Source: Narcine bancroftii (lineage: Eukaryota). From it: DNA of 64,000 nt. The notes below the pieces were generated by a model that worked only from the letters and a program-made list of their open reading frames with translations, had not been told where the DNA came from and searched no databases. The translations under genes and the position numbers were made by a program. The stretch spans positions 4,712,001 to 4,776,000 of the forward strand of contig NC_091477.1 of NCBI RefSeq assembly GCF_036971445.1. The letters run 5' to 3'. Of the stretch, positions 5,541-54,499 are shown in pieces. The first letter of the stretch is position 1; each line of letters begins with the position of its first letter.

Positions 5541-7901
5541 ATGGCGAATTCGCAGAACAACGCCTTGACGTTAAGGAGAGTGATTTTTATTTTCCTTGCT
5601 CACGCCTTGAACCTGGGATTTGGACAGATTCGCTACTCTATCCCAGAAGAAATGGAATATGGCTCTTCTGTTGGGAATATCGCTGAACATTTGGGGCTAA
5701 CTGCACGACAATTGTCAGCTCGAAAATGTCGCCTTGTCTTCGCAGAGGGAAGGCAGTATTTGGAGGTAAATTTAGGCACAGGCGTCTTATTTATCAACGA
5801 ACGAATAGATAGGGAGCAGATTTGTGCTCAAAGCTCTTCCTGTAAGCTCGCTTTCCAGATAATATTGGACAATCCCCTAGAAATGCACCGCGGTGAGGCC
5901 GAGATACTCGACATAAATGATAACTCACCCTCTTTCCCAGATAACGCCATTGTGTTGCAAATGGCCGAATCCATTGCACTAGGCTCCCGTTACCCACTAG
6001 AGAGCGCGCTCGATCCAGACGTGGGAACAAACGCGGTCACCGGGTATATGATCAGTGCAAATGGATATTTTGCATTGAAAGAGAACGTCAGAGAAGATAG
6101 TTCTAAAATAGCAGAGTTGTTGTTGGAGAAATCGTTAGACCGTGAAGATCAGACATCTTTCCAACTTGTATTAACAGCCATCGATGGCGGCAGGCCCCCG
6201 AGATCCGGGACAACTCAAATCACTATCAGGGTTCTGGACATCAACGATAACGCCCCCGTATTCGAGAATGAAGTATATCGGGCGAATCTGGAAGAAAACG
6301 CATCAGTGGGGACCTTAGTGACTAAAATCAAAGCTGTCGATTTGGATCAAGGAACGAATGCTGAATTAAAATATTCGTTCTTTAAAGTTGTCCCAGAGAC
6401 AGTCCGTGAATTGTTCAATTTGGATCCTGAAAGTGGAGAGATTAAGGTACAAGGTCAGCTGGATTATGAAGGAGTAAAGAGTTATGAACTTGATGTCCAA
6501 GCGGTGGATAACGGTTCACCAGCCATCACAGGACATTCCAAAGTACTAATCAAATTGATCGATGTAAATGATAATGCCCCGGAGATCACACTGACCTCCT
6601 TGTCTGGTAAAGTCCCCGAGGATGCTGAGCCCGGGACAGTGGTAGCTCTGATGGATGTTACGGATCGCGATTCTGGAGAAAACGGGCAAGTTCACTGTCA
6701 CATTCCACTGGGACTTCCTTTTAAAATTCAATCTTCGACAGATCACCATTATAAAATAACTACCAGCCGTTTATTGGATCGGGAAACCATCCCAGGATTT
6801 CACATACCTATCATAGCTTGGGATTCGGGATCTCCTCCCCAGTCTACAAATAAAACCATCCAGATATCGGTATCTGATGTAAACGACAACACACCACGAT
6901 TTTCGCAATCCTCCTACACTCTATATGTGATGGAGAACAACGTTCCGGGCGCGTCTATATTCGCACTTACTGCATTCGATCCTGACCTAGACCAAAACTC
7001 CTACATTTTCTATTCCATCAAAGAAAATCGGAATTCTTTGGTGCCCACTTATCTCAGCATTAACTCGATGAACGGCACTATTTACGCCCAACATTCCTTC
7101 GACTACGAGGCGCTGAAAACCTTCCAGATCCAAGTCCAAGCCCGTGACGCTGGGATGCCCCCGCTGAGCAGCAGCGCGGCGGTAAACGTGATCATCCTGG
7201 ATCAAAATGACAACGCACCGGTTATTGCCTTGCCTTCAGGCCAGAGTGGATCAACAATTGTGGAGATGGTGTCCCAGTCAGCCGGTCAAGGATACTTGGT
7301 GACCAGGGTATTGGCAACTGATGCAGATTCCGGTCAGAATGCCCGGCTCTCCTACCAAATGGTTCAAGCAACCGATCCAACTCTATTCAGCGTGGGGCGG
7401 AATTCGGGCGAAATCAGGACATCGAGAAGCATTTTGGACCTGGATGATACCTCGCAAAGTCTGGTCGTTTTAGTGAAGGACAACGGACACCCGAGCCTGT
7501 CCAGTACAGCTACAATCCACGTGTCGATTTTGGGCAACGTCAGTGAGAAAATCTCTGAAACCAGCAATTTGCACAGTACCCCTGGATACTTCTCCGACAT
7601 AAATCTGTATTTAATTGTCACATTCGGATCCACTTCGGTTATATTCCTTCTTACTATAATCTTCTTGGTTGCATTAAAATGTAAGCAGGATGTGGGCGTT
7701 GTTTACGTTGATGGATGTCGAGTTTCCTGTTGCAAGGACACGAATGGTCCGGGCTCTGCGCCAAGGGATCACTTAAACTATACTGCCACTGGTCAGACAG
7801 CACCGTTCCATGACAGTTATCATTATTCGGTTTGCTTGTCACCGGAATCATCCAAAAGTGAATTTCTTTACCTGAAACCCTGCAATGCATCCTTAACCTA
7901 A
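5541..7901 (+). CDS. Clustered-type protocadherin gene 1 (signal peptide, EC1-EC6, TM, short cytoplasmic tail), 786 aa, single exon
   Basis: QIRYSIPEE start of EC1, EC1 Cys pair (CAQSSSC), DRE/DxNDN/AxDxG cadherin motifs, TM LYLIVTFG...FLVAL, tail YSVCLSPESSKSEFLYLKP; ATG in good context (acaATGg). Confidence 0.93.
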   Translation: MANSQNNALTLRRVIFIFLAHALNLGFGQIRYSIPEEMEYGSSVGNIAEHLGLTARQLSARKCRLVFAEGRQYLEVNLGTGVLFINERIDREQICAQSSSCKLAFQIILDNPLEMHRGEAEILDINDNSPSFPDNAIVLQMAESIALGSRYPLESALDPDVGTNAVTGYMISANGYFALKENVREDSSKIAELLLEKSLDREDQTSFQLVLTAIDGGRPPRSGTTQITIRVLDINDNAPVFENEVYRANLEENASVGTLVTKIKAVDLDQGTNAELKYSFFKVVPETVRELFNLDPESGEIKVQGQLDYEGVKSYELDVQAVDNGSPAITGHSKVLIKLIDVNDNAPEITLTSLSGKVPEDAEPGTVVALMDVTDRDSGENGQVHCHIPLGLPFKIQSSTDHHYKITTSRLLDRETIPGFHIPIIAWDSGSPPQSTNKTIQISVSDVNDNTPRFSQSSYTLYVMENNVPGASIFALTAFDPDLDQNSYIFYSIKENRNSLVPTYLSINSMNGTIYAQHSFDYEALKTFQIQVQARDAGMPPLSSSAAVNVIILDQNDNAPVIALPSGQSGSTIVEMVSQSAGQGYLVTRVLATDADSGQNARLSYQMVQATDPTLFSVGRNSGEIRTSRSILDLDDTSQSLVVLVKDNGHPSLSSTATIHVSILGNVSEKISETSNLHSTPGYFSDINLYLIVTFGSTSVIFLLTIIFLVALKCKQDVGVVYVDGCRVSCCKDTNGPGSAPRDHLNYTATGQTAPFHDSYHYSVCLSPESSKSEFLYLKPCNASLT
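5994..6008 (+). promoter_or_regulatory. Putative exonic CTCF site (eCBS-like) in EC2 of gene 1
   Basis: CCACTAGAGAGCGCG compared with CTCF core CCASYAGRKGGCRS; same codon position (F/Y-P-L-E-x-A) as the mammalian Pcdh-alpha exonic CBS. Confidence 0.5.
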
Positions 7902-9074
7902 ACCTATTGCTAAATCTCACCAAGCATTTTTATAAAATGCTCCGAAATTTGGCCAAGATACTACGCTCTTTCAAACATCGCTCCTTGTTTAATCTTTGGC
8001 GAAAAATGAGCAGGAATAAACGCGGCAGTGAGGCGATGGAAACAAAATAGCCACGAACAATTGTTCTAATATTATAACGGTCAGTAAATTTAGTAAGGTA
8101 TCTCGCTGAGTGACGGCTGACTATTCACCCTCGAATATGTTCGGTGGTAACAAGGTTGCTTCAGTCGTGATCCGAACATATTATCAACCAATGCCCAGTT
8201 TCCAATCATTAAGCGGCAAGGTTACAAAATGTAAATATTTTCATCCCCTGTTAAAAAGTCAATCGAACGTTTTGGTAAGGTCACATTGACTATATTGGAT
8301 TTTTTTTGCGATCTTCGTTTCCTTTAAGAGATTTTTGACGTAAAAATGAAGCTTTACATCTTGTTCGTCACCATAACATCGTTTCAGGAAGCAGAAGAAC
8401 ATTGTAAACTTTGTTGCTTTAATCAGATACATTATATTCTCTTGTACATTTTCCCTTGTCAACGCTAATGTTTGTGCCACATACAGTCCGTCCCTCCCCC
8501 ATATTCATCTGGCCCGATTAGCATATTTTAACATTTTTTTCTCTCTCTCGTGATAATCAATAATATTTGATTCAACTAATAGTGGCACAATCGTTAGGTG
8601 GAACTATTTCCTGAAATCTCTGTTGATTTATTGGTGACTGGTTGCAGTTAGACTCATGATTTTATTATAACGTTTTCTAATGGAAATATTCTTCCCATTA
8701 AGTTATCAAGTGAACTTCAACGGAACAATTTACCACCTTCCCAATTCGGCAACAGCCTCAGCATTTTGTATCAGTGTAGCCCTTTCTAAGACATGTTGTC
8801 TAGTCTGTGCCACCACTGTAAATATGATCTATCCAAGTTAATGTGGAATTTGAATGACATCTTCTCTGATTTCCAATTCTATTCCGCTGAAACTAGATCG
8901 CAGTGCATCGTGCATTGACTAATGTACAGTTATGCATCATTAGTTTTAACGATTTCCTTCATAAATTTGGCACAGAATGTCCATTCAAATGCTTAATTTT
9001 CAAGCAAAATAGGATTCCTATTTTTACAATCACAATGCACTGCTTACATGAATACACGCTAAATGATAGATAAT

Positions 9075-9770
9075 TGAGGAGTTCAATAGAACAAAGGGAT
9101 TTAGGAATTCTGGTGCATAATTCCCTGAAAGTGGAGTCACATATAGATAGGGTGATGAACAAAGCTTTTGGTATGTTGGGTTCATAAATCAGCGTATTGA
9201 GTACATGAGTTGGGATGTCATCTTGAAGTTGTTAAAGGCAACAGTGAAGCCAAATTTGGAATTTTGCGTGCAGTTTTGGTCGGCAATTTATAGGATGGAT
9301 ATCAACAATATATAGAGAGTGCAGAGAAGATTTACAAGAATGTTGCCTGGCTTTCAGGCGTTGAGTTACACGGGAACGTGAAATAGACTTTTTTCCCTCG
9401 ACCATAGAAGATTGAAGAGTGATTTGATAGAGGTATTTAAAATTATAAGCGGCGAAGATAGACTAAACATGGATAGGCGTTTGTGGGGGAGCATCAGACA
9501 AGAGGACATGGATTGAGATTGAAGGGGGAAAAGTATAGGGGAAACATGAGGGGGAATTTCTTCACTCAGAGGATGGTGGGAGGGTGGAATGAGTTTCCGG
9601 CCAAAGTGGTAGATGCAGGCTTGATTTTAATATTTAAGGAAAGGTTGGAATGTATATGGATGAGAGAGGTATGGAAGGTTATGGGCTACGTGCTGATCAG
9701 TGCGACTTGGTGGGAGAAGGTGTTCGGCCGAACTATCCCTTTTCTGTGCTGTAATTGTTACATGGTTATT
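9075..9770 (+). mobile_element. CR1-type LINE 3' part
   Basis: ORF 9483-9881 reads TRGHGLRLKG...NFFTQRMV..WN, the typical CR1 ORF2 C-terminus; RT C-terminal motifs lie upstream. Confidence 0.8.
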
Positions 9771-9814
9771 TGGAAATCACGCATCAATCCGACATATAAT
9801 TATAAAATCATGTT

Positions 9815-10835
9815 AACATGCAAGAGTTTGTGCCCTTCGAGCCCGCCCCACCATTCAATACGAGTACGCCTGATCATGTGAATTCAGTACCTTATTCTTG
9901 CTTCCTTTCCACACCCTTCATCCCTTTAGCCTCAAACGAATTATCCAACTCTATGTTAAATATATCAAAAATTAACTGCCCGCAACAACTTTCTCTGGTA
10001 GTGAATACCACAAATTCTCAACTTCACGAGTGAAGATGTTTCTCCTTATTTTGGTCTTAAGTGGCTTATCTCTTATCCTTAAACTCTGACACATTGTTTA
10101 GGATTTCCACCACGTCAAACACATTCTTCCTCCCTCTAATTTGCCCAGTCCTGCCAGAATGTTACGTGTCAATGAAATCCCCTCTCATTCCTCTGACTTT
10201 CAATGAGTTTAAAACCAAACTACCCAGACTTTCTTCATACGTCAATCATCGATCCGTTGAACATTGAATGGGCTTTCTCAATACCTAGAATGTCCTCCCT
10301 CTTCTCAGCAGTCCGAAACTGTGCACAGTACTCATCTGTGGCCTCATCAAGCCCTATAGAACTACAGATGGCCCTGCTTCCAGTTTCAAAACCTCCCGCA
10401 ATAACGGACCACATGCCATCTGCATTTTTCAGCACCTGATGTATGTGATATGCCATAAGCAAGGATCAGACTTGTATCAAACTATATCTTTTTATTAACA
10501 GAAGAAGCCACCTCTACTGACCAGTGGGCTAAGTTGCACCATCTATTATACCAGTAGGGTGGAGCCAATAACCAATAGCAAGCAGTCACCATAATACATC
10601 ACATCACTACAGTATGCGCCTCCCAACGTTCAATGATGGATTCACTATGACACCAGGGACTTGTCTCTTTTCTTCTCTTTTCCACATTTGTCAGTATTCA
10701 GATAATAATCTGTAAGTCTGTAATTCTGCATTATACCTTACCTGCTATGCATTTTCCCACTCTCCGAAATTGTTCATGTCGCCCATCTCCTCTTAGAATC
10801 TTCCTCACAGCTCTCACTGCCATGCAGCTTCGTCA
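9815..10835 (-). mobile_element. Degraded CR1-type LINE, interrupted by a short LTR-like insert
   Basis: The minus strand gives EYCAQF (CR1 LEYCVQFW-like) and CR1 3'-end motifs. Confidence 0.6.
10444..10611 (-). mobile_element. Probable short solo LTR
   Basis: TGT...CACTACA ends, GTAT repeated at both flanks, minus-strand AATAAA and TATAA-like motifs; interrupts the CR1 fragment. Confidence 0.4.
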
Positions 10836-11369
10836 CTGGCCTCGGTGAGTTCTTTCCCGGATATTATTAGGTAATTAGGACCCAATAGCTTTCAAATGCA
10901 TCGGATTCAACAGTCAAAGCACAAGGATCAACAAACAATTTAGAATCCATACTTTGATCTCTGACGTAATCACACACAAGATAACTTATTTAAAAAGTTA
11001 CTTTCAACCACATTAACATTGCCTACATTTCTTATTGCTTCTCAATTAACTTAGAGGATTGAATGCCCTTTTGAAATGCACAATAATTCTATTTTCCTTC
11101 CAGTTTTCCACTCCAGATGCTTTATAATAATATTAGCTAGAGAAGATGACATTTTACTGTATTGAGATTGGGATATCGAGGGCACATTTCACTAATCACG
11201 TTTAATGGCTCTTAATATATATAAAAAAACGGAAAGCATCTCCTGATCACCTAGTAACAACGAACTCGTTGACTCCGACAACTTATAAACATTGCACGTG
11301 ATATTCACGAGTGGCTTTGTGGATTAATTCAACTTGGATCAACGGTTTGTCTATCGAAGAGTCATTTAA

Positions 11370-11770
11370 AATCCTCTATTGTACCAGCTCCCACCACCAA
11401 GCTTGACAATGAATTCCAGGCACTCACTATTCTCTGCGTAAAAATCTTAACCCTGAAGTCTCCCCAAACGTTCTTTCCCTCAACTCAGAAAGATGCCCTC
11501 TGGTATTTGCGACTGTCACCCTGGAGAAGGGTTTTGGCTGTCCAGGTGATCTGCGCATCTCACAATCTTGTAGATCTCTATTTAGTCACCTCTCATCCTT
11601 CTTTGGTCCAAAGAGAGAAGTCCGAGCTCCATTAACCTTGCCTCATAAAACACATTGTCCAATCCAGGCCACACCCTGGTAAATCTATGCTCTCTCTCCA
11701 AAGCTTCCACATCCTTCCTGTAATGAGGTGATCAGAACTGGACTCAATTCCCAGTGTGATCTAATTAGAT
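11370..11770 (-). mobile_element. CR1-type LINE 3' fragment
   Basis: Reverse complement of CR1 motifs (tttttacgcagag, agaggtgac, ggattggacaatg); homologous to 36880-37295. Confidence 0.65.
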
Positions 11771-12125
11771 TTTGCAGTACTTTCTGGTATTTATATTGGA
11801 ATTCCAGAATATGCATTTTTTCATTGTTGTGGATGGAAAGTTATCTCCCTCCATTTCAATTGTAGTCATTCCCATTGTTTGGCCACAGTGAATCAGACCG
11901 ATGATATTCTATTTATAATAAAAATACGGCCCTTAACTCTATGATACGGCCCTTAACATTTAATTATACCCAGTAGCTCCATACTTGCGACAAATATTAG
12001 ATTAACTTCAGTTTACCTTATTAAAAAGATGTAATGAACAGACCTCAAATTATAATGTTAAGTTAGGTTGTTTCATTGCTTTCTCAGTCATTGCTTGAAC
12101 CCTGGTCTTTTCGAGGGGTCATGCG

Positions 12126-12287
12126 NNNNNNNNNNNNNNNNNNNNNNNNNNNNNNNNNNNNNNNNNNNNNNNNNNNNNNNNNNNNNNNNNNNNNNNNNNN
12201 NNNNNNNNNNNNNNNNNNNNNNNNNNNNNNNNNNNNNNNNNNNNNNNNNNNNNNNNNNNNNNNNNNNNNNNNNNNNNNNNNNNNNNN
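12126..12287. other. Assembly gap (N run)
   Basis: Run of n. Confidence 0.98.
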
Positions 12288-13010
12288 TAGGTTTTGGGGA
12301 GTCAATAGTGGGAGAGCAATTTACCCCATCTATAAAAGAAAGTTAAGGCAGTACGAATGGGATTTTGAAGCTGTAATAGTAATGATTTGATGGAACAGTT
12401 TTCTGTCTTTTTTTTTATTATTGCCAGTATCATTATATAGCAACTCTTCTTGTTTATTTATATACATTCAAATGGATTCTGTCTATGTTCCTTTTGGACC
12501 ATTCTAACTCTCTCAAAATGTTCTGTAGTTTCTTTTACCTGTGCTATCACACTCCCAATTTTTGCTTTAATCTTTTTATGCATAACTTGCATCCAAAAGT
12601 ATAATGTCTCACAATGGTATTTGTAATAAGAGAGGCTCTGTCCGATATATGTATGTCTACTGAAAAATGAGATATATATTGCATGTATGCATAAACATCC
12701 GAGGTCACGTTGTCTCCAATGGCTCAGCTGAGTTTCCATAACGTTGAGTTCTTGGAAAAAAATGGATAAATTGGAAATACGAAAATACATAAGTGATTAG
12801 CAAACACAGGATAAAGTCTTTGTATGAAAATATTTCTTACATATTTCTAGCAAATAGCCATGGTTTTGTTAATCAGAAAAACAAAGTAACTGTTGCAACT
12901 TATGTTTGGAAAAAAAAAACATTTTACTTAAAAGAACAATAGAGAAGAATACAATCATTTTTAAGTGTTTGCCAACATTTAATTGCACAATACAATTTGG
13001 AGAACAGTCT

Positions 13011-13110
13011 AGCTTTAAGAAATGCACTCTGCAGTGACTGACAAGGGCTCATTGTAACACCATCAACCAATAGGAACCCACTTTCAGCAGGAGATCTATT
13101 GTCCCTCCCC
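13011..13110 (+). promoter_or_regulatory. Pcdh promoter module 2 (CGCT box changed to CACC; CCAAT intact)
   Basis: agctttaaga 13011, tgcag 13030, cacc 13058, ccaat 13067, gatctattg 13093. Confidence 0.75.
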
Positions 13111-13298
13111 ATTGCAGACCGAGTTTCGATTCAGATTGCAGAATCAGGCTACGACGCTTCGAGTCTTTGTAAATTTTGAATGAAGAATTATCGTTCAAAG
13201 GATTTTATTGTCGAGACATGCTTGGAATATTTTGGCTGGTTTAAAAAAAAAACAATCTCGCCCAGGGAACAGTGAATTCGCATTGCAAGGCTGCACTG

Positions 13299-15647
13299 AT
13301 GAGCAAAATGCTATTTTTTATTTTAGTTATTTGCACATTGAACCAGGGGCTGGGTCTGATTCGCTATTCTATTCCGGAGGAAATGGAATATGGTTCTTCC
13401 ATTGGGAATATTGCTGAACATTTGGGACTAAGCATTCAAGAACTTTCAGCTCGAAAATGTCGCCTGGTATCCACTGACAAAGTACAGAATTTGGAAATAA
13501 ATTTAGAGACCGGTGTTTTATTTGTTAGCGGTCGCATAGACAGAGAACGGCTTTGCGGGCAGAGACGATCCTGTCGTCTTGCCTTTCAGATAATACTCGA
13601 CAACCCCATGGAAATGTACCGCGGTGAGGTGGATATTGTGGATATAAATGATAATTCACCCTCTTTCCCAGACAACAACATTCTTTTTCAAATTGCCGAA
13701 TCTATTGCACCAGGCTCGCGTTTCCCACTAGAGAGCGCTCTCGATCCAGACGTGGGGACGAACACAGTCACACAGTATACGATCAGCCCCAATGAGCATT
13801 TCGGTCTGAAGGTGAATGTCAGAAAGGATAATGTCAAAACTGCAGATTTGTTGTTAGAGAAACCTTTGGACCGTGAACGTCAGGCATCTTTCCATCTTTT
13901 GCTTACTGCCGTTGATGGAGGCAGACCTCCAAGATCTGGAACAACTCAAATTACCATCAACGTTCTGGATATCAATGATAATGTACCTGTGTTCGAGAAT
14001 GATGTATACACGGCGAGTCTGGAAGAAAACGCACCATTGGGTACTTTGGTGATGAAAATTAAAGCAGTCGATCTGGATCAAGGAACAAATGGTGAATTAA
14101 AATATTCTTTCGTTAATCTCGTACGTGAGTTGTTCAGTTTGGACCCTGTAACGGGAGAGATCAGAGTTCAAAAACAGCTGGACTTTGAAGTAGCCAACAA
14201 TTATGAATTTGATGTCCAAGCCGCGGACAACGGTTCACCAGCGACCACAGGACATTCCAAAGTGCTGATCGAATTAATTGATGTTAATGATAATGCCCCC
14301 GATATAACAGTGACCTCCCTGACTGGCAAAGTCCCCGAGGATGCTGCGCCCGGGACTGTGGTAGCTCTGATGGATATTACGGATCTCGATTCTGGGGAAA
14401 ATGGACGGGTTCACTGTCATATACCACTGGAATTACCCTTTAAAATTCAATCGTCCCTGAATAACCATTATAAATTAGTCATAAGCCGTCTGTTGGATCG
14501 AGAGAAGGCCCCAAGTTATAATATACCTCTCATGGCTTGGGACTCCGGATCTCCTCCAATGTCAACAAACAAAACAATCCAGATATCTGTGTCTGATATA
14601 AACGACAACGCACCAAGATTTTCGCAATCCTCCTACACTCTATATGTGATGGAGAACAACGTTCCGGGCGCGTCTATATTCGCACTTACTGCATTGGATC
14701 CTGACCTGGACCAAAACTCCTACATTTTCTATTCCATTACAGAAAATCGGAATTCTTTGCTGCCCACTTATCTCAGCATTAACTCGATGAACGGCACTAT
14801 TTACGCCCAACATTCCTTCGACTACGAGGCGCTGAAAACCTTCCAGATCCAAGTCCAAGCCCGTGACGCTGGGATGCCCCCGCTGAGCAGCAGCGCGGCG
14901 GTAAACGTGATCATCCTGGATCAAAATGATAACGCACCGGTTATTGTTTCACCTTCAGACCAGAGTGGATCAACAATTGTGGAGAAGGTGTCCCAGTCAG
15001 CCGGCCAAGGATACTTGGTGACCAAGGTATTGGCAACTGATGCAGATTCCGGTCAGAACGCCCGGCTCTCCTACCAAATGGTTCAAGCAACCGATCCAAC
15101 TCTATTCAGCGTGGGGCGGAATTCGGGCGAAATCAGGACATCGAGAAGCATTTTGGACCTGGATGATACCTCGCAAAGTCTGGTCGTTTTAGTGAAGGAC
15201 AACGGACACCCGAGCCTGTCCAGTACAGCTACAATCCACGTGTCGATTTTGGGCAACGTCAGCGAGAAAATCTCTGAAACCAGCAATTTGCACAGTACCC
15301 CTGGATACTTCTCCGACATAAATCTGTATTTAATTGTCACATTCGGATCCACTTCGGTTATATTCCTTCTTACTATAATCTTCTTGGTTGCATTAAAATG
15401 TAAGCAGGATGTGGGCGTTGTTTACGTTGATGGATGTCGAGTTCCCTGTTGCAAGCGAAGGAAACCAAAGGACACCAATGGTCGGGGCTCTGCGCCAAGG
15501 GATCACTTAAACTATACTGCCACTGGTCAGACAGCACCGTTCCATGACAGTTATCATTATTCGGTTTGCTTGTCATCGGAATCATCCAAAAGTGAATTTC
15601 TTTACCTGAAACCACACAATCCATCGTTGGATCAAGCACACCGATAA
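13299..15647 (+). CDS. Clustered-type protocadherin gene 2, single exon; probable start ATG 13299 (alternative 13308)
   Basis: Full signal peptide-EC1-6-TM-tail. The ORF-track start at 13272 is GTG; the first in-frame ATG is 13299. Has a 4-aa deletion in EC3 relative to gene 3. Confidence 0.92.
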   Translation: MSKMLFFILVICTLNQGLGLIRYSIPEEMEYGSSIGNIAEHLGLSIQELSARKCRLVSTDKVQNLEINLETGVLFVSGRIDRERLCGQRRSCRLAFQIILDNPMEMYRGEVDIVDINDNSPSFPDNNILFQIAESIAPGSRFPLESALDPDVGTNTVTQYTISPNEHFGLKVNVRKDNVKTADLLLEKPLDRERQASFHLLLTAVDGGRPPRSGTTQITINVLDINDNVPVFENDVYTASLEENAPLGTLVMKIKAVDLDQGTNGELKYSFVNLVRELFSLDPVTGEIRVQKQLDFEVANNYEFDVQAADNGSPATTGHSKVLIELIDVNDNAPDITVTSLTGKVPEDAAPGTVVALMDITDLDSGENGRVHCHIPLELPFKIQSSLNNHYKLVISRLLDREKAPSYNIPLMAWDSGSPPMSTNKTIQISVSDINDNAPRFSQSSYTLYVMENNVPGASIFALTALDPDLDQNSYIFYSITENRNSLLPTYLSINSMNGTIYAQHSFDYEALKTFQIQVQARDAGMPPLSSSAAVNVIILDQNDNAPVIVSPSDQSGSTIVEKVSQSAGQGYLVTKVLATDADSGQNARLSYQMVQATDPTLFSVGRNSGEIRTSRSILDLDDTSQSLVVLVKDNGHPSLSSTATIHVSILGNVSEKISETSNLHSTPGYFSDINLYLIVTFGSTSVIFLLTIIFLVALKCKQDVGVVYVDGCRVPCCKRRKPKDTNGRGSAPRDHLNYTATGQTAPFHDSYHYSVCLSSESSKSEFLYLKPHNPSLDQAHR
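13725..13739 (+). promoter_or_regulatory. Putative exonic CTCF site in gene 2
   Basis: CCACTAGAGAGCGCT. Confidence 0.55.
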
Positions 15648-16729
15648 ATCTCAACGTTGTGGGAAACCCAAAGGTTTTAAAAAAATACCCATATATATTT
15701 AAATTGGTTTGAGAGCCCATTGCCTGTGAAATATCTCCCATTATTTGATCCGCAGCAAAAGAAAATTGTGTTAAACCGGCTTTGTTATTAAGTAAAGGAA
15801 ATAGGTAGAAATAATTTGCTGTACTCTTTAATCATCTCGACTACCGATGGACAAAAAGCCGAAATTGTATCAGGTTTTAGCCCTGTTTCTAAAACCACCC
15901 TTTGGATATATTATAATGCAACTGTCATTCAACACATTCACACTGTTTATATATAGGCATCATGTTGTGGCATGCTCTCTATGCCATTTTAATCTTTCAA
16001 ATATATGCTGTTTTACGCACCATTGAAATATGTTCTAAACTAGTTACCCGCTGTAGCGAGATATCAATGCTAAACGCGTGCATTCTTTTTAATGACCTAT
16101 TTTGCAGCATTAATTTTAGTGATTTCCTTGATCAATTTTACACCAATCCCCCTTTCAGATTCCCAGCTTTCAAGCGTTACCACAAAACACAACTTCGTGA
16201 ATTATATACCTTCTAGTTCACTTTGCAATCGTATGTAAATTCCACGTTTATTAACGTATTCTACCTTCGTCACGTAATTTCCTGAACATAATACGTTAAT
16301 CTGGAGACATGAGCTTTCTTTGCCAATACTAATTTTTAAAAATTTATAAAATATATGACGAATTCCTTGGTTTAAATTTCTATCATAGCAAATAATGAAT
16401 TGTTGTTGGCGCAACATTAATGCCCTTCCAAATACAATTTTCCATCATTGACAAGTTTGCATTCTCACTGCAATCATTTCTCTCCGTTTCCTGATGGAAA
16501 TTATTCATTTCTTATCTATTCCACTGAAAATCAATTTAAACGCCATGCTTTAATATCCGACATAATTCCATCTAGAGTATCATATTGAAATATTGTTGAC
16601 GATACTAAGAAAGTCGCTTCATCCACTTTATCCATGCAAAAACGTCCTGTTACCTTTCAGTTGGCTAAGGATTGAATATTTTCTTTTAAAATCCACAAGA
16701 ACTATGCTTTTCTTTGCTTTATCTATTTT

Positions 16730-16853
16730 GTATACTCACATGCCGCCTGAAGTAATCCCTTAGTAACCTCAGAGCAGCTATACCACAGGTCTCTGGGGCT
16801 AGTAAAAATAACATCAGGTGGTATTTGAGTGGAAAAAAGCTTGAGAACCACTG
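16730..16853. mobile_element. hAT MITE single unit (left end degraded)
   Basis: ctcacatgccgcctgaagtaatccc...ggtggtatttgagtgg...ttgagaaccactg. Confidence 0.65.
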
Positions 16854-17291
16854 ATTACATCATTCGGCAAAAATGACCTTTATACCATTGACCTTTTTAA
16901 TACCTAACTATAAATAAAAATGAAAATATCTGCCTGTTAATCCGGAGTCCGAAGCCATAATAGGTATATTATAACAAACAATATTAGCTTATCACGTGTG
17001 AACATTATTTTTGACATTACCTCTCTGCATTATTCCAACTACGTGGTGCATTTTACTCGGATCCAAGATTTTACCGTCTTGGATTTTGATTATTTTATTA
17101 GTGATTAACTTTCCAAATTCCTTAGATTATTTCTTATTCTAAGAGATTGTATAGTTTCCACACCACCCTGAATATAAATGACGTGAAACAACTGTCAATC
17201 ATTTTTAGGACTGGTATCAATGCAGGTGAACTTGTTACGCTTTCATTTTACAAAGAAAACATGAGCATTCACGTTTATATTCTCCCTATGA

Positions 17292-17450
17292 CATTTGTTC
17301 TCAACCTTCCCCCCCTCCCCTCACATACCACCTCACGTAATCCCCTACTAACCACGGAGAACATATGGCATAGGATGCGTCGATGCTCTGTGGTTAAGAA
17401 GGGATTCCTTCAGGTGGTATTTGAGTGCAAATAAAGGTTGAGAACCACTG
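17292..17450. mobile_element. hAT MITE single unit
   Basis: gttctcaacc...ggttgagaaccactg inverted termini with a palindromic core. Confidence 0.7.
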
Positions 17451-18857: not shown

Positions 18858-19006
18858 GAGTGGTACTCAATCTTTCTTTCCTACTCACATACCACCTTAA
18901 GTAATCCCTTACAAACCACAAAGCACTTATCTACCATAAGTGCTCTGTAGCTAGTAAGGGATTACTTAAGGCGGCATGTAAGTGGAAAAAAGGTTGAAAA
19001 CCATTG
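18858..19006. mobile_element. hAT MITE single unit
   Basis: gagtggtactcaa...ttgaaaaccattg termini; ccaccttaagtaatccctt / aagggattacttaaggcgg stem. Confidence 0.75.
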
Positions 19007-19617: not shown

Positions 19618-21969
19618 ATGCTGTTTTATATTTTCCTTGTTTGCGCACTGAACCAGGGGCTGGGTCTAATTCGCTATTCTATTCCAGAGGAATTGGAATA
19701 TGGCTCTTCTGTTGGGAATATTGCTGAACATTTGGGACTGAGCGTTCGCGAATTATCAGCTCGAAAATGTCGCCTGGTCTCCGCTGATGAAAGACAGCAT
19801 TTGGAGGTAAATTTAGAAACTGGAGTATTGTTTGTAAGCAATCGAATAGACAGAGAAGAGCTTTGCATTCAGAACCCTTCCTGCACACTTGCTTTCCGGA
19901 TAATATTAGAAATGCCGCTCGAAATGTACCGCGGTGAGGTGGATATTGTGGATATAAATGATAATTCACCCTCTTTCCCAGACAACAACATTCTTTTTCA
20001 AATTGCCGAATCTATTGCACCAGGCTCGCGTTTCCCACTAGAGAGCGCTCTCGATCCAGACGTGGGGACGAACACAGTCACACAATATACGATCAGCCCC
20101 AATGAGCATTTCGGTCTGAAGGTGAATGTCAGAAAGGATAATGTCAAAACTGCAGATTTGTTGTTAGAGAAACCTTTGGACCGTGAACGTCAGGCATCTT
20201 TCCATCTTTTGCTTACTGCCGTTGATGGAGGCAGACCTCCAAGATCTGGAACAACTCAAATTACCATCAACGTTCTGGATATCAATGATAATGTACCTGT
20301 GTTCGAGAATGATGTATACACGGCGAGTCTGGAAGAAAACGCACCATTGGGTACTTTGGTGATGAAAATTAAAGCAGTCGATCTGGATCAAGGAACAAAT
20401 GGTGAATTAAAATATTCTTTCGCTAATCTCGTCCCAGGGAGCGTACGTCAGTTGTTCAGTTTGGACCCTGTAACGGGAGAGATCAGAGTTCAAAAACAGC
20501 TGGACTTTGAAGTAGCCAACAATTATGAATTTGATGTCCAAGCCGCGGACAACGGTTCACCAGCGATCACAGGACATTCCAAAGTGCTGATCGAATTGAC
20601 TGATGTTAATGATAATGCCCCCGATATAACAGTGACCTCCCTGACTGGCAAGGTCCCCGAGGATGCTGCACCCGGGACATTGGTTGCTCTTATCGATGTT
20701 AAGGATCGCGATTCTGGAGAAAATGGAAAAATCCAATGCCATATTCCATTTGGAATTCCCTTCAACATTCTATCTTCCTTGACTAACCATTATAAGGTAA
20801 CGACCAGCAGTTTATTGGATCGGGAAACGATTCCACAATACAATATAACAATTGTAGCCTGGGACTCTGGGGCTCCTTCACTATCAACAAATAAAACCAT
20901 CCAGATATCGGTATCTGATGTAAACGACAACACACCACGATTTTCGCAATCCTCCTACACTCTATATGTGATGGAGAACAACGTTCCGGGCGCGTCTATA
21001 TTCGCACTTACTGCATTCGATCCTGACCTAGACCAAAACTCCTACATTTTCTATTCTATCAAAGAAAATCGGAATTCTTTGTTGCCCACTTATCTCAGCA
21101 TTAACTCGATGAACGGCACCATTTACGCCCAACACTCCTTCGACTACGAGGCGCTGAAAACCTTCCAGATCCAAGTCCAAGCCCGTGACGCTGGGATGCC
21201 CCCGCTGAGCAGCAGCGCGGCGGTAAACGTGATCATCCTGGATCAAAATGACAACGCACCGGTTATTGCCTCGCCTTCAGGCCAGAGTGGATCAACAATT
21301 GTGGAGATGGTGTCCCAGTCAGCCGGTCAAGGATACTTGGTGACCAGGGTATTGGCAACTGATGCAGATTCCGGTCAGAATGCCCGGCTCTCCTACCAAA
21401 TGGTTCAAGCAACCGATCCAACTCTATTCAGCGTGGGGCGGAATTCGGGCGAAATCAGGACATCGAGAAGCATTTTGGATCTGGATGATACCTCGCAAAG
21501 TCTGGTCGTTTTAGTGAAGGACAACGGACACCCGAGCCTGTCCAGTACAGCTACAATCCACGTGTCGATTTTGGGCAACGTCAGTGAGAAAATCTCTGAA
21601 ACCAGCAATTTGCACAGTACCCCTGGATACTTCTCCGACATAAATCTGTATTTAATTGTCACATTCGGATCCACTTCGGTTATATTCCTTCTTACTATAA
21701 TCTTCTTGGTTGCATTAAAATGTAAGCAGGATGTGGGCATTGTATACGTTGATGGATGTCGACTTCCCTGTTGCAAGCGAAGGAAACCAAAGGACACCAA
21801 TGGTCGGGGCTCTGCGCCAAGGGATCAGTTGGACTACAGCACAGATTGTCAGACAGCACAGTTCCATGAGAGGTATCATTACTCGGTTTGCTTGTCACCG
21901 GAATCATCCAAGAGCGAATTTCTTTTCTTGAAACCCTGCAATCCATCCTTGTCTGAAGGGCATTGTTAA
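19618..21969 (+). CDS. Clustered-type protocadherin gene 3, single exon; probable start ATG 19618
   Basis: Full domain set. The ORF-track start at 19549 is TTG; the first in-frame ATG directly precedes the hydrophobic signal peptide MLFYIFLVCAL. Confidence 0.92.
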   Translation: MLFYIFLVCALNQGLGLIRYSIPEELEYGSSVGNIAEHLGLSVRELSARKCRLVSADERQHLEVNLETGVLFVSNRIDREELCIQNPSCTLAFRIILEMPLEMYRGEVDIVDINDNSPSFPDNNILFQIAESIAPGSRFPLESALDPDVGTNTVTQYTISPNEHFGLKVNVRKDNVKTADLLLEKPLDRERQASFHLLLTAVDGGRPPRSGTTQITINVLDINDNVPVFENDVYTASLEENAPLGTLVMKIKAVDLDQGTNGELKYSFANLVPGSVRQLFSLDPVTGEIRVQKQLDFEVANNYEFDVQAADNGSPAITGHSKVLIELTDVNDNAPDITVTSLTGKVPEDAAPGTLVALIDVKDRDSGENGKIQCHIPFGIPFNILSSLTNHYKVTTSSLLDRETIPQYNITIVAWDSGAPSLSTNKTIQISVSDVNDNTPRFSQSSYTLYVMENNVPGASIFALTAFDPDLDQNSYIFYSIKENRNSLLPTYLSINSMNGTIYAQHSFDYEALKTFQIQVQARDAGMPPLSSSAAVNVIILDQNDNAPVIASPSGQSGSTIVEMVSQSAGQGYLVTRVLATDADSGQNARLSYQMVQATDPTLFSVGRNSGEIRTSRSILDLDDTSQSLVVLVKDNGHPSLSSTATIHVSILGNVSEKISETSNLHSTPGYFSDINLYLIVTFGSTSVIFLLTIIFLVALKCKQDVGIVYVDGCRLPCCKRRKPKDTNGRGSAPRDQLDYSTDCQTAQFHERYHYSVCLSPESSKSEFLFLKPCNPSLSEGHC
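20035..20049 (+). promoter_or_regulatory. Putative exonic CTCF site in gene 3
   Basis: CCACTAGAGAGCGCT. Confidence 0.55.
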
Positions 21970-30256: not shown

Positions 30257-30360
30257 AGCTTTAAGATTTTCTGGTGCAATGATTGACAAGGGCTTTCTGC
30301 GTCGCTGTCCACCAATCAGGAGTTCAAATGCAGCGAGAGATCCATTGCTCCACCCCCACC
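30257..30360 (+). promoter_or_regulatory. Pcdh promoter module 4 with intact CGCT box (CSE/CTCF-like) and CCAAT
   Basis: tgcaa 30275, gtCGCTgt 30301-30308, ccaat 30312, gatccattg 30339, cacccc box. Confidence 0.8.
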
Positions 30361-30539: not shown

Positions 30540-32912
<2,373 letters not shown>

Positions 32913-40661: not shown

Positions 40662-40760
40662 AGCTTTAAGAATTGTTGCTGCAGTTGTTGAAAAGGACTG
40701 ACTGCGTCGCTGTCTACCAATGGGAAGCGCTTGTTCTTGGCTGGATCCATTGCCCCGCCC
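40662..40760 (+). promoter_or_regulatory. Pcdh promoter module 5 with intact CGCT box, CCAAT and GC box
   Basis: tgcag 40680, CGCT 40708, ccaat 40717, gatccattg 40744, ccgccc. Confidence 0.8.
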
Positions 40761-40961: not shown

Positions 40962-43340
40962 ATGGCGTACCCACTGTGGTTTGCCTTCAATCTGCTTGCA
41001 TGCGCGTTTCTGACATGTATACCAGATATAATTAATGGCCAAATTCGTTATTCAATTCACGAGGAATTGGAAGAAGGGGCATTTGTCGGGAATATCGCTC
41101 AGGATTTGGGACTGAATGTCCGGCAATTGTCCACTCGCAAATTACGCCTGGCCCCTGTCGCCGGAGGACGGTACATGAAGGTTAGTTTGGATAATGGGCT
41201 TTTGTCTATTCGTGAAAGGATCGACCGGGAACATATTTGTGGACAGGCAGTTGTGTGCATTTTACCTTTCGAAACAACTCTGCAAAATCCTTTGGAGGTT
41301 CATCACGGCGAACTGGAGATTCTTGATGTAAATGACAATTCCCCGGTTTTCCGCGACGGCAGCATTTCTTTGAAGATGTCCGAAGCAATTACACCAGGAA
41401 TACGCTTCCGCCTCGAGGGCGCAGAAGATCAGGATATTGGGATAAATACTGTCGCCGGCTACACAATCAGTTCCAGTGAGTACTTCAGTCTAAAAACGCA
41501 GCTCACCGATGACCGTGTTATAAGTGCAGAGTTGGTGTTAGAGAAATCTTTGGACCGAGAGCGGCAATCATCGTTTCAGTTGTTGCTTACGGCCACTGAC
41601 GGTGGGATTCCTCAAAGGTCCGGTACGGCTCAGATTCTCATTACAATATTGGACTTCAATGATAATCCACCTATATTCGAGCATGATGTCTACAAAGGCA
41701 GCCTCAGTGAAAACGCACTGCCAGGTACCTCAGTGTTGAAAGTTAATGCAAACGATTTGGACGAGGGGGTGAATGCTGAGATAACATATTCTTTCAGTGA
41801 TCGAACCATGAGACAAATACGTGATATATTCATCATAGACCCAGATACAGGAGAGATTCGGCTAGAAGGACCGCTGGATTTTGAAGAAGCAAACACCTAT
41901 TCGCTCGACGTTCAAGCTGTGGACCACGGTATCCCTGCGATTACAGGATACTCAAAAGTGCTGATCAAGGTAATTGATGTGAACGACAACGCCCCCGAGA
42001 TAACATTGACATCAACATTTAACAAAATCACGGAAGATGCTCCTCCAGGAACATTCATAACCTTGATCAATGTCATCGATCGCGATTCTGGAGAAAATGG
42101 TCGAGTTCGGTGTGCAATACCGAAGAACATCCCTTTCAGGCTACAAACATCATCTGACCGTTATAAACTAATTTCTAGTGAAGCGTTGGACCGTGAGGCG
42201 ATCTCTGAGTACAAGATTCCTGTTTCAGCCTGGGACCAGGGATCTCCTTCACTGTCAACAAATAAAACCATCCATGTCACAATTTCCGATGTAAATGATA
42301 ACGCCCCACAGTTTACGGAGCCTTCCTACAACATTTATGTGATGGAAAACAACGGCCTTGGTGTTTCTATATTCGCGGTTACAGCGTCCGATCCTGATTT
42401 GGACCAGAATTCGTATGTTTCATACTCTCTTCTGGCCAATCATATGGGAGACTTGCCAGTGTCCAGTTATATCAGCATTAACTCGATGAACGGTACCATT
42501 TACGCGCTGCGCTCATTCGACTACGAGAAACTAAAAACCTTCCAGATCCAGGTTCAAGCCCGTGACGCTGGAGTGCCCCCGCTGAGCAGTCGCGCTGCGG
42601 TTAATGTGATAATCCTGGATCAAAATGACAACGCGCCGGTAATTGTTTCACCTTCAGCACCGGGTGGATCAGCAGCAGTGGATTTCATGCCCCATTTAGC
42701 GAGTCAAGGCTACCTGGTGACCAGGGTAATGGCTACAGATGCAGATTCCGGGCAGAACGCACGGCTGTCATATCAGATGCTCAAATCGACTGATTCTACC
42801 TTGTTCAACGTTGGACGAAACTCCGGTGAAATCAGAACAGCTCGCAATATTTTGCAGTCAGATAGCAGCTCACAGACTTTGGTGATATTGGTGAAGGACA
42901 ACGGGCAGCCAAGCCTCTCGAACACGGTTACAATTCACATTACAGCTTTGGAGAACATCACCGAAAAAATAAGCGAAAGTAGTAAATTAGTGAAGTATCC
43001 GGAATACGTTTCCAATCGAAATCTTTATTTGATCGTCATTTTCGGTTGCACGTCCATTGCCTTTCTGTTGATCATCGTTCTGTTGATTGGCATCAAGTGT
43101 AAGCAGGACCGAACTGTCATCCAGGAGTACAATTACCCCAGTTATTGTTACAAAGGCGGAGATTCGCGCGTCACGTTGAACCGGGGAGCTGCAATGGAGG
43201 AAACTTTGCGCTATTCCGGGACTGGCCAGGTAGTCCGCGTGCCAGAATTGAATCAATATTCTGTCTGCCTGTCCCCGGAATCAGCGAAAAGTGATTTTCT
43301 CTTCTTGAAGCCATGCGACGTTCCCACCTCTCAAGCCTAA
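40962..43340 (+). CDS. Clustered-type protocadherin gene 5 (divergent subgroup), single exon; ATG 40962
   Basis: acaATGg start, signal peptide, QIRYSIHEE, six cadherin repeats, TM, tail YSVCLSPESAKSDFLFLKP. The ORF-track start at 40836 is GTG. Confidence 0.92.
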   Translation: MAYPLWFAFNLLACAFLTCIPDIINGQIRYSIHEELEEGAFVGNIAQDLGLNVRQLSTRKLRLAPVAGGRYMKVSLDNGLLSIRERIDREHICGQAVVCILPFETTLQNPLEVHHGELEILDVNDNSPVFRDGSISLKMSEAITPGIRFRLEGAEDQDIGINTVAGYTISSSEYFSLKTQLTDDRVISAELVLEKSLDRERQSSFQLLLTATDGGIPQRSGTAQILITILDFNDNPPIFEHDVYKGSLSENALPGTSVLKVNANDLDEGVNAEITYSFSDRTMRQIRDIFIIDPDTGEIRLEGPLDFEEANTYSLDVQAVDHGIPAITGYSKVLIKVIDVNDNAPEITLTSTFNKITEDAPPGTFITLINVIDRDSGENGRVRCAIPKNIPFRLQTSSDRYKLISSEALDREAISEYKIPVSAWDQGSPSLSTNKTIHVTISDVNDNAPQFTEPSYNIYVMENNGLGVSIFAVTASDPDLDQNSYVSYSLLANHMGDLPVSSYISINSMNGTIYALRSFDYEKLKTFQIQVQARDAGVPPLSSRAAVNVIILDQNDNAPVIVSPSAPGGSAAVDFMPHLASQGYLVTRVMATDADSGQNARLSYQMLKSTDSTLFNVGRNSGEIRTARNILQSDSSSQTLVILVKDNGQPSLSNTVTIHITALENITEKISESSKLVKYPEYVSNRNLYLIVIFGCTSIAFLLIIVLLIGIKCKQDRTVIQEYNYPSYCYKGGDSRVTLNRGAAMEETLRYSGTGQVVRVPELNQYSVCLSPESAKSDFLFLKPCDVPTSQA

Positions 43341-43569
43341 TGCTAAATTACCATGATGTTCCACATCATTCATTTACCATGATGCCCAGCTTAATTGCAA
43401 TAATTTCTTTGGTTATCAAGGAATGTTAGTTATTGCAATTGAAGTTTTTAAGAAAGTATCCATAGGCGTAAAACAGTTTAGTTTTAATTTAAACTTATGT
43501 TCAGTTGTAATGGTCTAAAATAAAAGTGTGAAAAATTAAGAATCCAATTTTTTAAGATTACCATCTGTT

Positions 43570-45950
43570 AATTTTTTTAAAAAACTTTATGTATTCGTTC
43601 AAAATACAAATAGTAAATAACATAAACAACATTGAACCAGAAACATGAACGTTATATTTTATATGAAAAATAAAAGTAAAGAAAAAATGGAAAAAATCGA
43701 AACCCCCCCTCCCCTTCAGCCAACTCTCCTAAAGAGAGTCATAAAGAAAGGAAAAAATTTTAAGGAAAATTAAACATACATATTAAGATCTGATCAACAT
43801 AAATCAAAATGTAAATATTCTAAATATAACAATCACTTACTAATAAAATTTCACGCGAAAAATATATAATTTATTCCATTATTAAACAATATTTCATCTC
43901 ATTATATCATCTATTAATATCAATCATATTCGTATTTTTCCACGTACTAACAATACATTTTTTCGCTAAAAATAATGCTAAATATACAAAAGTAAGTTGA
44001 AATTTATCTAATTCCAAACCTTTCAATGGTTATAAACTGCCCAATAAAGATGCTATCGGGTCTAAAGGTATTTTATCCTTATACAGGTATTCTAAAAACA
44101 ATTGAATTTTCCTCCAAAAAGATTTTATATATATACACATGACCATACAGCATGAAAAAAAATTTCCAACAGAATTACCACATCTAAAACACGAATTTAA
44201 TTAACGAAAAAAAATACTTTTTTAGTTTTTCAGATGTTAAATATAATTAATATAAAAAAAATTAATCATTGCATAGCGTAAATGTATTAGCCTAATTACA
44301 GTATCATAACAAATATCTAATCAATCATCTTTGGAAAAAATAAAACCAATATCCACTTCCCATTTCCCTTTGGATTTATCCCAACCTTTTTATGCATACT
44401 ATCCTATAATATTTAATACATAAATGAAATAGAACCCTTCTCTGGTACCTTCATAAGAAAAGTCTCAAATTTAGTCATTTCATGTAAAATTGTACCACTA
44501 CCAAACACACGTTTTACCAAAGATCAAATTTAATAATAAAGAAACAAAGAGTTCTTATCAATACCATAGCTGTCCCTCATCTTCACACTTAATCGGATTG
44601 TTTAAACCTCAAACATTAAAAGTAGGAAACCTCAACTTTAACATATCTACTAATATTACTAAAGACAAATAATATCTTTATATGAAAACTGAAATCATCA
44701 TATATAGGCCGTCCAATAGGAGAAAAAAATCACAAATTAAAAGCTAGATAAAATGAAAATAATAAAAAGAAGAATAAAATTAACAACCCCCCACCCAAAA
44801 AAAAATTATCAAAAGGTAGTAATCCCTGAACAAAATTTGGGTGTGGATAACCCACCAGTGGCTGATGACTAATAGAACCTAGAACTAATCTCTTCCTCCC
44901 CAGCCAAACATAAAGTAATCTCAAAATATCATAATAACATAAAAAATAAAATAAGAATAAGAAGATTCTTCTATTCATCCAAGAGTTTCCAAACTCGGAG
45001 ATCCCATTTCAAAAGAAGCTGGACTCTTTCCATTTCTGTTTTCCCCATTTCTGCCATTTCTTCCAATGGTGGACTACGTGTTTGTCCTCTTATATCTGGC
45101 AATGAATCAGCAAAAATCATTGCTTCACGATCATCCTCAAAAAACCGAGATTGATGGTCTCCATGAAACACCTTCAACACTGCCGGATAGCAAAAAGTAG
45201 ACTTATAACCTTTACACCACAAAACTTCTTTAACTGGATTAAATTGACGTCGACGTTGAATTACCTCTTGACTCAAATCAGGATAAAAAAACTCTGCTAT
45301 TCTGAATCAATAACAGAGTTTTTCGTTTTCTCGCATTTTGCACTGCCAGTCGAAGTATTGCTTCTCTATCCAAATAATTCAAACATCGAATTATTACAGG
45401 TCTCAGTGGTTGACCAGATAAAGTTGTTCTTCTTGAAGCTCTATGAGCTCTTTCCAGTACCAAGCTTCCAGAAAAAAATTCTTGCCCTCGTACTTGTGGG
45501 ATCCAGTCTATAAAAAAACGAAGAGGATCTTGTCCTTCCATACCTTCTGGCAAACCAACAATTTTCACATTATTCCTTCTACTTTGATTCTCCAAATAGT
45601 CTATTTTCCTCTCTAACTCCTTCTCACATTCTCGCAATTCTATAAGGGATTTTTCAACCTTCAACCCTTTTTCTGTATTAGAAGTCACTTGCTGTTTACA
45701 TTCCAAAAAGAAGACTGAAAGTTTAAAAAATCTTCACAAGATGCTTCCACACGTGCTTTAACTGTATTCAATTCTGAACTTATTCTTTGAGCCATCTCAT
45801 TCATTATAGGCTGGATGACAGCATTTAACGGCTTACATTGTAATTCAGAAAAGCTCAGCCCTGCTTTCTCTAACGTAGTGGCAGAACCAGGTAAATGCAG
45901 CTCCTGCTGCAACTCAACAAAATGCATTTTGATCATCTGTTAATTTTGAA
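43570..45950 (-). mobile_element. L1-clade LINE, internally deleted (ORF1 plus ORF2 C-terminus)
   Basis: ORF1 motifs LENQSRRNNVKIVGLPE, LERAHR, RPVIIR; minus-strand CFRC...FFHAVWSC Cys-rich tail at ~44130-44190; no room for EN/RT. Confidence 0.8.
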
Positions 45951-47867: not shown

Positions 47868-47899
<32 letters not shown>

Positions 47900-48328: not shown

Positions 48329-48365
<37 letters not shown>

Positions 48366-50255: not shown

Positions 50256-50259
50256 GTCA

Positions 50260-52381: not shown

Positions 52382-52483
52382 GCTGCATGCGCGACGGAAG
52401 GCTTGTTTCTTCTCTGGACAGGACGGCTTTGTAAGGTGAGCCTGGTGGGCAGCTCGCTTCTTTGCCAGCAGCTCCTGGATTTC
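52382..52483 (-). mobile_element. Internal RTE-LINE fragment filling the breakpoint
   Basis: About 59% GC island; the minus strand reads EIQELLAKKRAAHQAHLTKPSCPEKKQAFRRACS without stops, recognised from memory as the EN-RT linker of RTE-clade ORFs. Confidence 0.7.
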
Positions 52484-54337
52484 AGTCTAAAAACGCAGCT
52501 CAACGATGACCGTGTTATAAGTGCAGAGTTGGTGTTAGAGAAATCTTTGGACCGAGAGCGGCAATCATCGTTTCATTTGTTGCTTACGGCCACTGACGGT
52601 GGGATTCCTCAAAGGTCCGGTACGGCTCAGATTCTCATTACAATACTGGACATCAATGATAATCCACCTATATTCGAGCATGATGTCTACAAAGGCAGCC
52701 TCAGTGAAAACGCACTGCCAGGTACCTCAGTGTTGAAAGTTAATGCAAACGATTTGGACGAGGGGGTGAATGCTGAGATAACATATTCTTTCAGTGATCG
52801 AACCATGAGACAAATACGTGATATATTCATCATAGACCCAGATACAGGAGTGATTCGGCTCGAAGGACCGCTGGATTTTGAAGAAGCAAATACCTATTCG
52901 CTCGATGTTCAAGCTGTGGACCACGGTTTCCCTGCGATTACAGGATACTCAAAAGTGCTGATCAAGGTAATTGATGTGAACGACAACGCCCCCGATATAA
53001 CATTGACATCAACATTTAACAAAATCACGGAAGATGCTCCTCCAGGAACATTCATAACCTTGATCAATGTTATCGATCGCGATTCTGGAGAAAATGGTCG
53101 AGTTCGTTGTGAAATACCGAAGAACATCCCTTTCACGCTGCAAACATCATCTGACCATTATAAACTAATTTCTAGTGAAGCGTTGGACCGTGAGGCGATC
53201 TCTGAGTACAAGATTCCTGTTTCAGCCTGGGACCAGGGATCTCCTTCACTGTCAACAAATAAAACCATCCATGTCACAATTTCCGATGTAAATGATAACG
53301 CCCCACAGTTTACGGAGCCTTCCTACAACATTTATGTGATGGAAAACAACAGCCCTGGTGTTTCTATATTCGCGGTTACAGCGTCCGATCCGGATTTGGA
53401 CCAGAATTCGTATGTTTCATACTCTCTTCTGGCCAATCATATGGGAGACTTGCCAGTGTCCAGTTATATCAGCATTAACTCGATGAACGGTACCATTTAC
53501 GCGCTGCGCTCATTCGACTACGAGAAACTAAAAACCTTCCAGATCCAGGTTCAAGTCCGTGATGCTGGAGTGCCTCCGCTGAGTAGTAGCGCTGGGGTAA
53601 ATGTGATCATCCTGGATCAAAATGACAACGCGCCGGTAATTGTTTCACCTTCAGCATCAGGTGGATCAGAAGCAGTGGAGATTGTGCCCCATTTAGCGAG
53701 TCAAGGCTACCTGGTGACCAGGGTAATGGCTACAGATGCAGATTCCGGGCAGAACGCACGGCTGTCATATCAGATGCTCAAATCGTCTGATTCTAGCTTG
53801 TTCAACGTTGGACGAAATTCCGGAGAAATCAGAACTGCTCGCAATATTTTGCAGTCAGATAGTAGCTCACAGACTTTGGTGATATTGGTGAAGGACAACG
53901 GGCAGCCAAGCCTCTGGAACACGGTTACAATTCACATTACAGCTTTGGAGAACATCACCGAAAAAATAAGTGAAAGTAGTAAATTAGTGAAGAATCCGGA
54001 ATACGTTTCCAATCGAAATCTTTATTTGATCGTCATTTTCGGTTGCACGTCCATTGCCTTTCTGTTGATCATCGTTCTGTTGATTGGCATCAAGTGTAAG
54101 CAGGACAGAACTGTCATCCAGGAGTATAATTACCCCAGTTATTGTTACAAAGGTGGAGATTCGCGCGTCACGTTGAACCGGGGACCTGCAATGGAGGAAA
54201 CTTTGCGCTATCCCGGGACTGGCCAGGTAGTCCGCGTGCCAGAATCTAATCAATATTCTGTCTGCCTGTCCCCGGAATCAGCGAAAAGTGATTTTCTCTT
54301 CTTGAAGCCATGCGACGTTACCACCTCTCAAGCCTAA
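52481..54337 (+). pseudogene. 5'-truncated protocadherin (gene 6), duplicate of gene 5; lacks promoter, signal peptide, EC1 and the first part of EC2; remaining frame open
   Basis: Homology to gene 5 starts abruptly at ttcagtctaaaaacgcag (equivalent to 41484); ORF-track start is TTG within the filler; no promoter module upstream. Confidence 0.85.
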
Positions 54338-54499
54338 TGCTAAATTACCATGATGTTCCACATCATTTATTTACCATGATACCCAGCTTAATTGCAGGAA
54401 TTTCTTTTGTTATCAAGGAATGTTATTTATTGCAATTGAAGTTTTTAAGAAAGTATCCACAGGCTCAAAACAGTTTAGTTTTAATTTAAACTTCTGTTA

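Follow-up and report, generated by a model that had tools for sequence, protein, structure and literature searches.

Organization of the locus

The window, by which we mean the whole stretch of 64,000 nucleotides of Narcine bancroftii DNA analyzed here (C21:4712001-4776000; the region C21:4312001-5376000 was read around it), contains the first six units, all on the + strand, of a block of protocadherin genes free of constant exons. Gene 1 (5541..7901) is an intact single-exon ORF of the Pcdh-epsilon type, 786 aa long, and ends 4 codons ahead of the ancestral stop position (7911..7913), which is now located in the 3' UTR. Genes 2 (13299..15647) and 3 (19618..21969) are intact single-exon ORFs of 782 and 783 aa, respectively, both counted from the first Met. 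Gene 5 (40962..43340) is an intact single-exon ORF of 792 aa, with the ancestral stop two codons on (43344-43346); over the cytoplasmic region used as query it shares 98% identity with a protein labeled as Narcine bancroftii. The other two units, genes 4 and 6, are pseudogenes. Gene 4 (30540..32912) keeps the ancestral QAQC-stop end and is interrupted by in-frame stops (about 31164 and about 31401) and by frameshifts near 32640-32690, in the vicinity of the TM segment. Gene 6 (52481..54337; ancestral stop at 54341-54343) is a 5'-truncated, promoterless copy of the gene 5 type that begins at codon 175, codons 1-174 being missing, and is 96% identical to this type. Both the lesions of gene 4 and the truncation of gene 6 had been overlooked in an earlier note on this DNA. 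The four intact genes all encode six cadherin repeats, a TM segment, and a short cytoplasmic tail, annotated as Cadherin_2, five Cadherin, and Cadherin_C_2 domains, and none contains Cadherin_tail (PF15974).

Several features of individual units deserve mention. Genes 2 and 3 appear to lack the starting ATG of gene 1 (13270-13300 and 19575-19620) and would start at a Met further downstream, so that their signal peptides would be shorter. Gene 6 (52382-52481) and a broken copy at C21:4806783-4811372 (C21:4809421) share their breakpoint at codon 174 as well as an identical insert of 100 bp, which points to a single lesion that was then duplicated. Six copies of the gene 5 type, with 92-98% protein identity and common flanks, are found within C21:4752824-4811372, which suggests a very recent tandem expansion; three of them are damaged or 5'-incomplete. 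The window also contains, on the - strand, ORF remnants at 45278-45733 and 58991-59491, which we take to resemble LINE retrotransposon proteins.

Using a promoter PWM built from 19 sites outside the window, a per-gene promoter element was identified on the + strand of four of the six units. CSE-like elements are clear for gene 4 (30289..30322; exact core match at 30301; PWM score 39.3) and gene 5 (40694..40727; exact core match at 40706; 49.8). Degenerate elements precede gene 1 (a CGCT-box/CSE-like element at 5298..5331; score 21.5 versus a background of at most 4.2, with a 3-mismatch match at 5310) and gene 2 (CSE-like, 13044..13077; 14.1), and gene 6 has none. In the promoter region of gene 3 (19330-19380) both gene-2-like flanks are kept and the CSE core between them is gone, and the ORF of this gene is intact.

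The cluster starts with one exon and its own constant set, followed by a lone exon at C21:4535440 and then by the block of 17 units (C21:4717526-4900654), of which 12 look full length. Beyond the block, 7 long exons go with the second constant set and 16 with the third. The block, which includes at least 4 broken copies in addition to recent near-identical duplicates, is thus located past the epsilon1 orthologue, flanked on one side by the first constant-exon set, which has a single gene and is delta-like, and on the other by the second set. Pfam Cadherin_tail (PF15974) has three matches genome-wide, at C21:4397867, 5116631, and 5373718, and in every set the first constant exon is 59 nt long and bounded by AG/GT (C21:4385462, 4997568, and 5314446); the delta exon was missed by the motif search for first constant exons and recovered by tblastn. 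The search of the scaffold for constant exons, which the earlier note had proposed, therefore yielded three sets and none inside the block region (between 4.40 and 4.99 Mb), a result that a very divergent fourth set could escape. According to passages of PMC2764143 and PMC4978886, the elephant shark has four subclusters in the order delta-epsilon-mu-nu and three constant sets, and the order and the three constant sets of the ray fit this scheme. The labels delta, mu, and nu in this ray genome are assigned by position and subcluster order, the named C. milii proteins in the comparison being all epsilon.

A fixed stop and no splice donor

Counting from the F(L)xLKP motif, a stop occupies the 11th codon in all six units (in gene order and on the + strand, 7911-7913, 15645-15647, 21967-21969, 32910-32912, 43344-43346, and 54341-54343). 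The codon ahead of it encodes Cys in five of them and Arg in gene 2. Earlier TAA codons are present in gene 1 (at 7899, 4 codons before) and in genes 5 and 6 (at 43338 and 54335, 2 codons before). All of this agrees with what the earlier note had read from these units, and its claim that the stop is a true C-terminus was also borne out. Among 68 homologous matches, 65 could be parsed, and 40 of these end exactly 16 residues past the start of the FLxL motif, which is the same residue as in the window units, whereas 54 end at 14-16 residues; they come from rays, skates, and sharks and are mostly automatic gene models. A stop that is fixed across such distant species argues for a real C-terminus, and, as judged from these sequences, the fixed stop is an inherited ancestral C-terminus common to rays and sharks. 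Since it is inherited, its presence in all six units is not due to chance, nor can these units be counted as independent pieces of evidence. The earlier stops in genes 1, 5, and 6 can be accounted for by weak constraint on the last 2-4 residues.

The same note had found no conserved AG/GTRAG before these stops, and indeed none is present between the TM segment and the stop in any of the six units. The best phase-0 GT score is -0.5 in genes 1-3 and 0.7 (CAG/GTAGTC) in genes 5 and 6, the last 40 codons of gene 4 having been judged by eye. A phase-0 G/GTRAG donor was detected in 0 of 14 long block exons, whereas the three sets that possess constant exons have one in 21 of their 24 exons. On an approximate scoring matrix, the donor scores do not overlap, with a maximum of 3.3 over the 14 block ORFs versus 4.1-7.9 in the 24 donor-bearing exons; the corresponding p value of 4e-7 overstates the evidence, as paralogues of one clade are not independent. 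In the donor-bearing exons, the ORF reads 9-117 nt into the intron and has no fixed stopping place. The last exon before the third set (C21:5307299-5309725) has a weaker donor, GAG/GTATGT, and a short cytoplasmic part, and may be spliced differently or be tail-less.

Contigs from probable RNA runs

Contigs were available from three runs (X1-X3) of a single study, which are probably RNA; one run contained a fraction of 0.23 of the gene 3 region's words, and the other two were picked by species label. In the gene 5 region, an X1 contig (42840-43528) and an X2 contig (42612-43528) span the weak GT sites and both stops unspliced, and an X3 contig stops at 43353, 13 bases beyond the stop. Cover starts at 40936 (X2) and 40959 (X3), which is 3-26 bases before the ATG at 40962, with none further upstream. 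These contigs best fit a paralogue at C21:4797039, outside the window (34 of the 38 differences listed), so what they document is the gene type rather than gene 5 in particular. Downstream of gene 5, the first AATAAA (43519..43524, +) is a candidate local poly(A) signal, and the end of the X1 and X2 contigs 4 bases after it, at 43528, is a weak hint in this direction; AATAAA or ATTAAA hexamers follow each gene and, being common in this AT-rich DNA, carry little weight. Gene 2 is tiled by eight X1 contigs (12970-15674) with small gaps, the last of which has a depth of 2.4 and ends 27 bases beyond the stop, below the 31-base bridging threshold. Gene 3 had no contig cover in X1-X3 and gene 2 had none in X2 and X3, which is not evidence on expression. 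Taken together, the contigs lend tentative, indirect support, for the gene 5 type, to transcripts that pass the stop unspliced and end locally. A minor spliced isoform may exist alongside these, as contigs drop rare isoforms and 37 loose contig ends lay beyond those listed.

Relationship to Pcdh-epsilon

The epsilon subcluster of the elephant shark is said to have been named by Yu et al. in 2008. A homologous match from C. milii clusters with "protocadherin epsilon5" (ABV59323.1), and the named C. milii proteins epsilon1-5, 8, 10-14, 17, and 18 (n = 13; 801-852 aa) were gathered for comparison. PF15974 was absent from all 13 and present in a skate first-set control protein. In an EC1-EC3 tree of 46 rows (LG+G4, careful search; 20 of the 39 long ORFs of the ray genome and 26 database proteins), seven block genes, nine named epsilon proteins, and two shark rows form one clade (100/99). 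The EC2-EC3 phylogeny, a quick tree of 78 of 91 rows, places all 14 block ORFs together with 11 named epsilon proteins in one clade (SH-aLRT 98), and a clade forced from the block and the second set was rejected (p-AU 4e-7). The suggestion in the earlier note of an unrecognized subcluster does not withstand these trees, both of which join the genes to the named C. milii epsilon proteins (epsilon2-18 in the 100/99 clade). Another part of its proposal, a constant-exon-free, beta-like architecture in an elasmobranch, stands, with single coding exons and no PF15974 in four of four intact proteins. Its statement that no beta subcluster was reported in the elephant shark concerns orthology and not architecture; the 13 epsilon proteins are also tail-less.

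The window units are thus single-coding-exon clustered protocadherins, a family of adhesion genes for neuronal identity, without a shared tail and, on sequence grounds, orthologous to the epsilon genes of the elephant shark (ABV59319.1-ABV59336.1). The two groups are alike in that they form one clade (epsilon2-18), encode proteins of about 800 aa with six cadherin repeats, a TM segment, Cadherin_C_2, and no constant domain, and are arranged as a tandem array following a single-gene first set. They are also similar in size, with 17 units in the ray versus at least 18 named in C. milii. However, the window genes are without one-to-one orthologues, fall in an elasmobranch-only subclade (98/95 in the EC1-EC3 tree) nested inside the epsilon clade, and are accompanied by recent duplicates that are almost identical, as well as by 4 or more broken copies. 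After the FLxL motif, proteins of this subclade end at 12-16 residues versus 25-38 in C. milii epsilon2-18; the last three block genes have ends of 23-25 residues, nearer to the C. milii lengths. In the part of the anole paper that lists constant exons (PMC2764143), these are given for alpha, gamma, delta, mu, and nu, and epsilon is not among them; from this list and the deposited proteins we infer that the epsilon subcluster is without constant exons. The automatic RefSeq names on the nearest homologues, "protocadherin gamma-C5-like," "alpha-C2-like," and "protocadherin-10-like," hide this epsilon identity, given that C-type genes are spliced to constant exons and that PCDH10 does not belong to the clustered protocadherins. 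A description of epsilon in elasmobranchs was not found in the literature searched, which missed most subscription papers.

The lone exon at C21:4535440 (locus C21:4535440-4538452) is the epsilon1 orthologue (100/100 in the EC1-EC3 tree). It is isolated, with roughly 137 kb separating it from the first constant set and 179 kb from the block that follows, and unlike the block exons it has kept a strong phase-0 donor. A terminal mini-exon of 11 codons, private to this gene and preceded by AG, is located 419 bases downstream, at C21:4538417; it matches the ends of gene models from several sharks and rays and is the putative splice partner of this donor. Epsilon1 groups near delta and not with epsilon2-18 (82/93), and a joint clade was marginally rejected (p-AU 0.037).

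Alternative readings

A first alternative, which is compatible with our reading of the window as epsilon genes, is that epsilon is the chondrichthyan orthologue of Pcdh-beta and that the tail was lost once, before the split between sharks and bony vertebrates. The Pcdh-beta genes of coelacanth and tetrapods are likewise tandem single-coding-exon genes with own promoters, a short tail, and no constant exons, and this identical architecture speaks for orthology. A grouping of epsilon with gamma-A/gamma-B, which served as stand-in for beta, was not rejected (p-AU 0.069), and gene 3 matched beta8 and gamma-A1 with 371 bits each (ratio 1.00). In contrast, this ratio was 0.90 for gene 5, similar to the second- and third-set controls (0.91 and 0.89), and the free EC1-EC3 tree keeps epsilon apart from gamma-A/B. 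Furthermore, beta was never the best solved-structure match of the ray genes, the scores show no consistent excess for beta, and the sets that flank the ray block appear to be chondrichthyan ones and not alpha and gamma. As relayed in a passage of PMC2764143, Yu et al. reported no bony-vertebrate orthologues, and beta is regarded as a derivative of gamma in the review PMC7811963, hence its use as stand-in. Two tetrapod proteins tested as possible beta proved to be gamma-C-like and gamma-A-like. Orthology to beta is unlikely in our view, and it is likelier that epsilon and beta lost the tail independently, which is also the reading published in the portion of PMC2764143 that deals with this question. 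Equally doubtful is the wider proposal that epsilon2-18 are beta orthologues, the tail-less subcluster dating from the first jawed vertebrates and not from lobe-finned fishes, and that "epsilon" is a composite in which epsilon1 would be a separate delta-like gene that still splices, its target being a private mini-exon which rays and sharks have conserved.

A second alternative, that the units are ordinary variable exons with weak or non-canonical donors that splice to downstream constant exons, appears very improbable. Genes 5 and 6 have the in-phase CAG/GTAGTC 111 nt before the stop, two paralogues have CAG/GTAATC (score 3.3), two constant-exon sets are located downstream on the same strand, and epsilon1 has a strong donor. 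However, the site is not common to genes 1-3 or the other block exons, these scores are under those of every true donor, and the contigs read through the site. In addition, PF15974 occurs in 0 chondrichthyan matches among the 68, and a stop conserved over rays and sharks would be unexpected within an intron. Least probable of all is an unrecognized, lineage-specific fifth subcluster apart from epsilon, for which the elasmobranch-only subclade (98/95), its 16-residue end compared with 25-38 in named epsilon2-18, and the non-rejection of monophyletic elasmobranch rows without C. milii epsilon (p-AU 0.31) could be cited, but this subclade falls within the epsilon clade (100/99), its position and architecture are identical, and turnover by lineage within subclusters is described as the norm in the relevant part of PMC2764143.

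Proposed function and sequence exchange

The best explanation, to which we assign a probability of roughly 0.9, is that the window holds six constant-exon-free units that group with epsilon2-18 and likely work like Pcdh-beta. In each intact gene, a promoter of its own probably drives a transcript with a single coding exon, and by analogy the product would be a short-tailed homophilic receptor. What is stated of mammalian Pcdh-beta in the sections of PMC7811963 that treat it would translate, in the ray, into stochastic promoter choice at the CSE in each neuron, trans recognition through EC1-EC4, and cis pairing with tail-bearing isoforms, which would supply the intracellular signal.

Genes 1-3 (5628-21969) share 97-99% DNA identity in bins that cover roughly EC5-EC6, whereas over EC1-EC4 gene 1 is only 75-81% identical to genes 2 and 3; genes 2 and 3 are 95-100% identical also over about EC2-EC3. 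This patchwork of identity points to gene conversion, and the divergence over EC1-EC4 is as expected if the recognition domains were spared. Gene conversion has reportedly been limited in the elephant shark.

With this finding, the epsilon subcluster, named in a holocephalan, is documented in rays and sharks as well, and automatic gene names that mislead are corrected. If epsilon were orthologous to beta, tail-less receptors would have an older origin; if the loss were clearly independent, this would represent a convergent loss of the signaling tail, and isoforms that provide diversity only would have been favored repeatedly.
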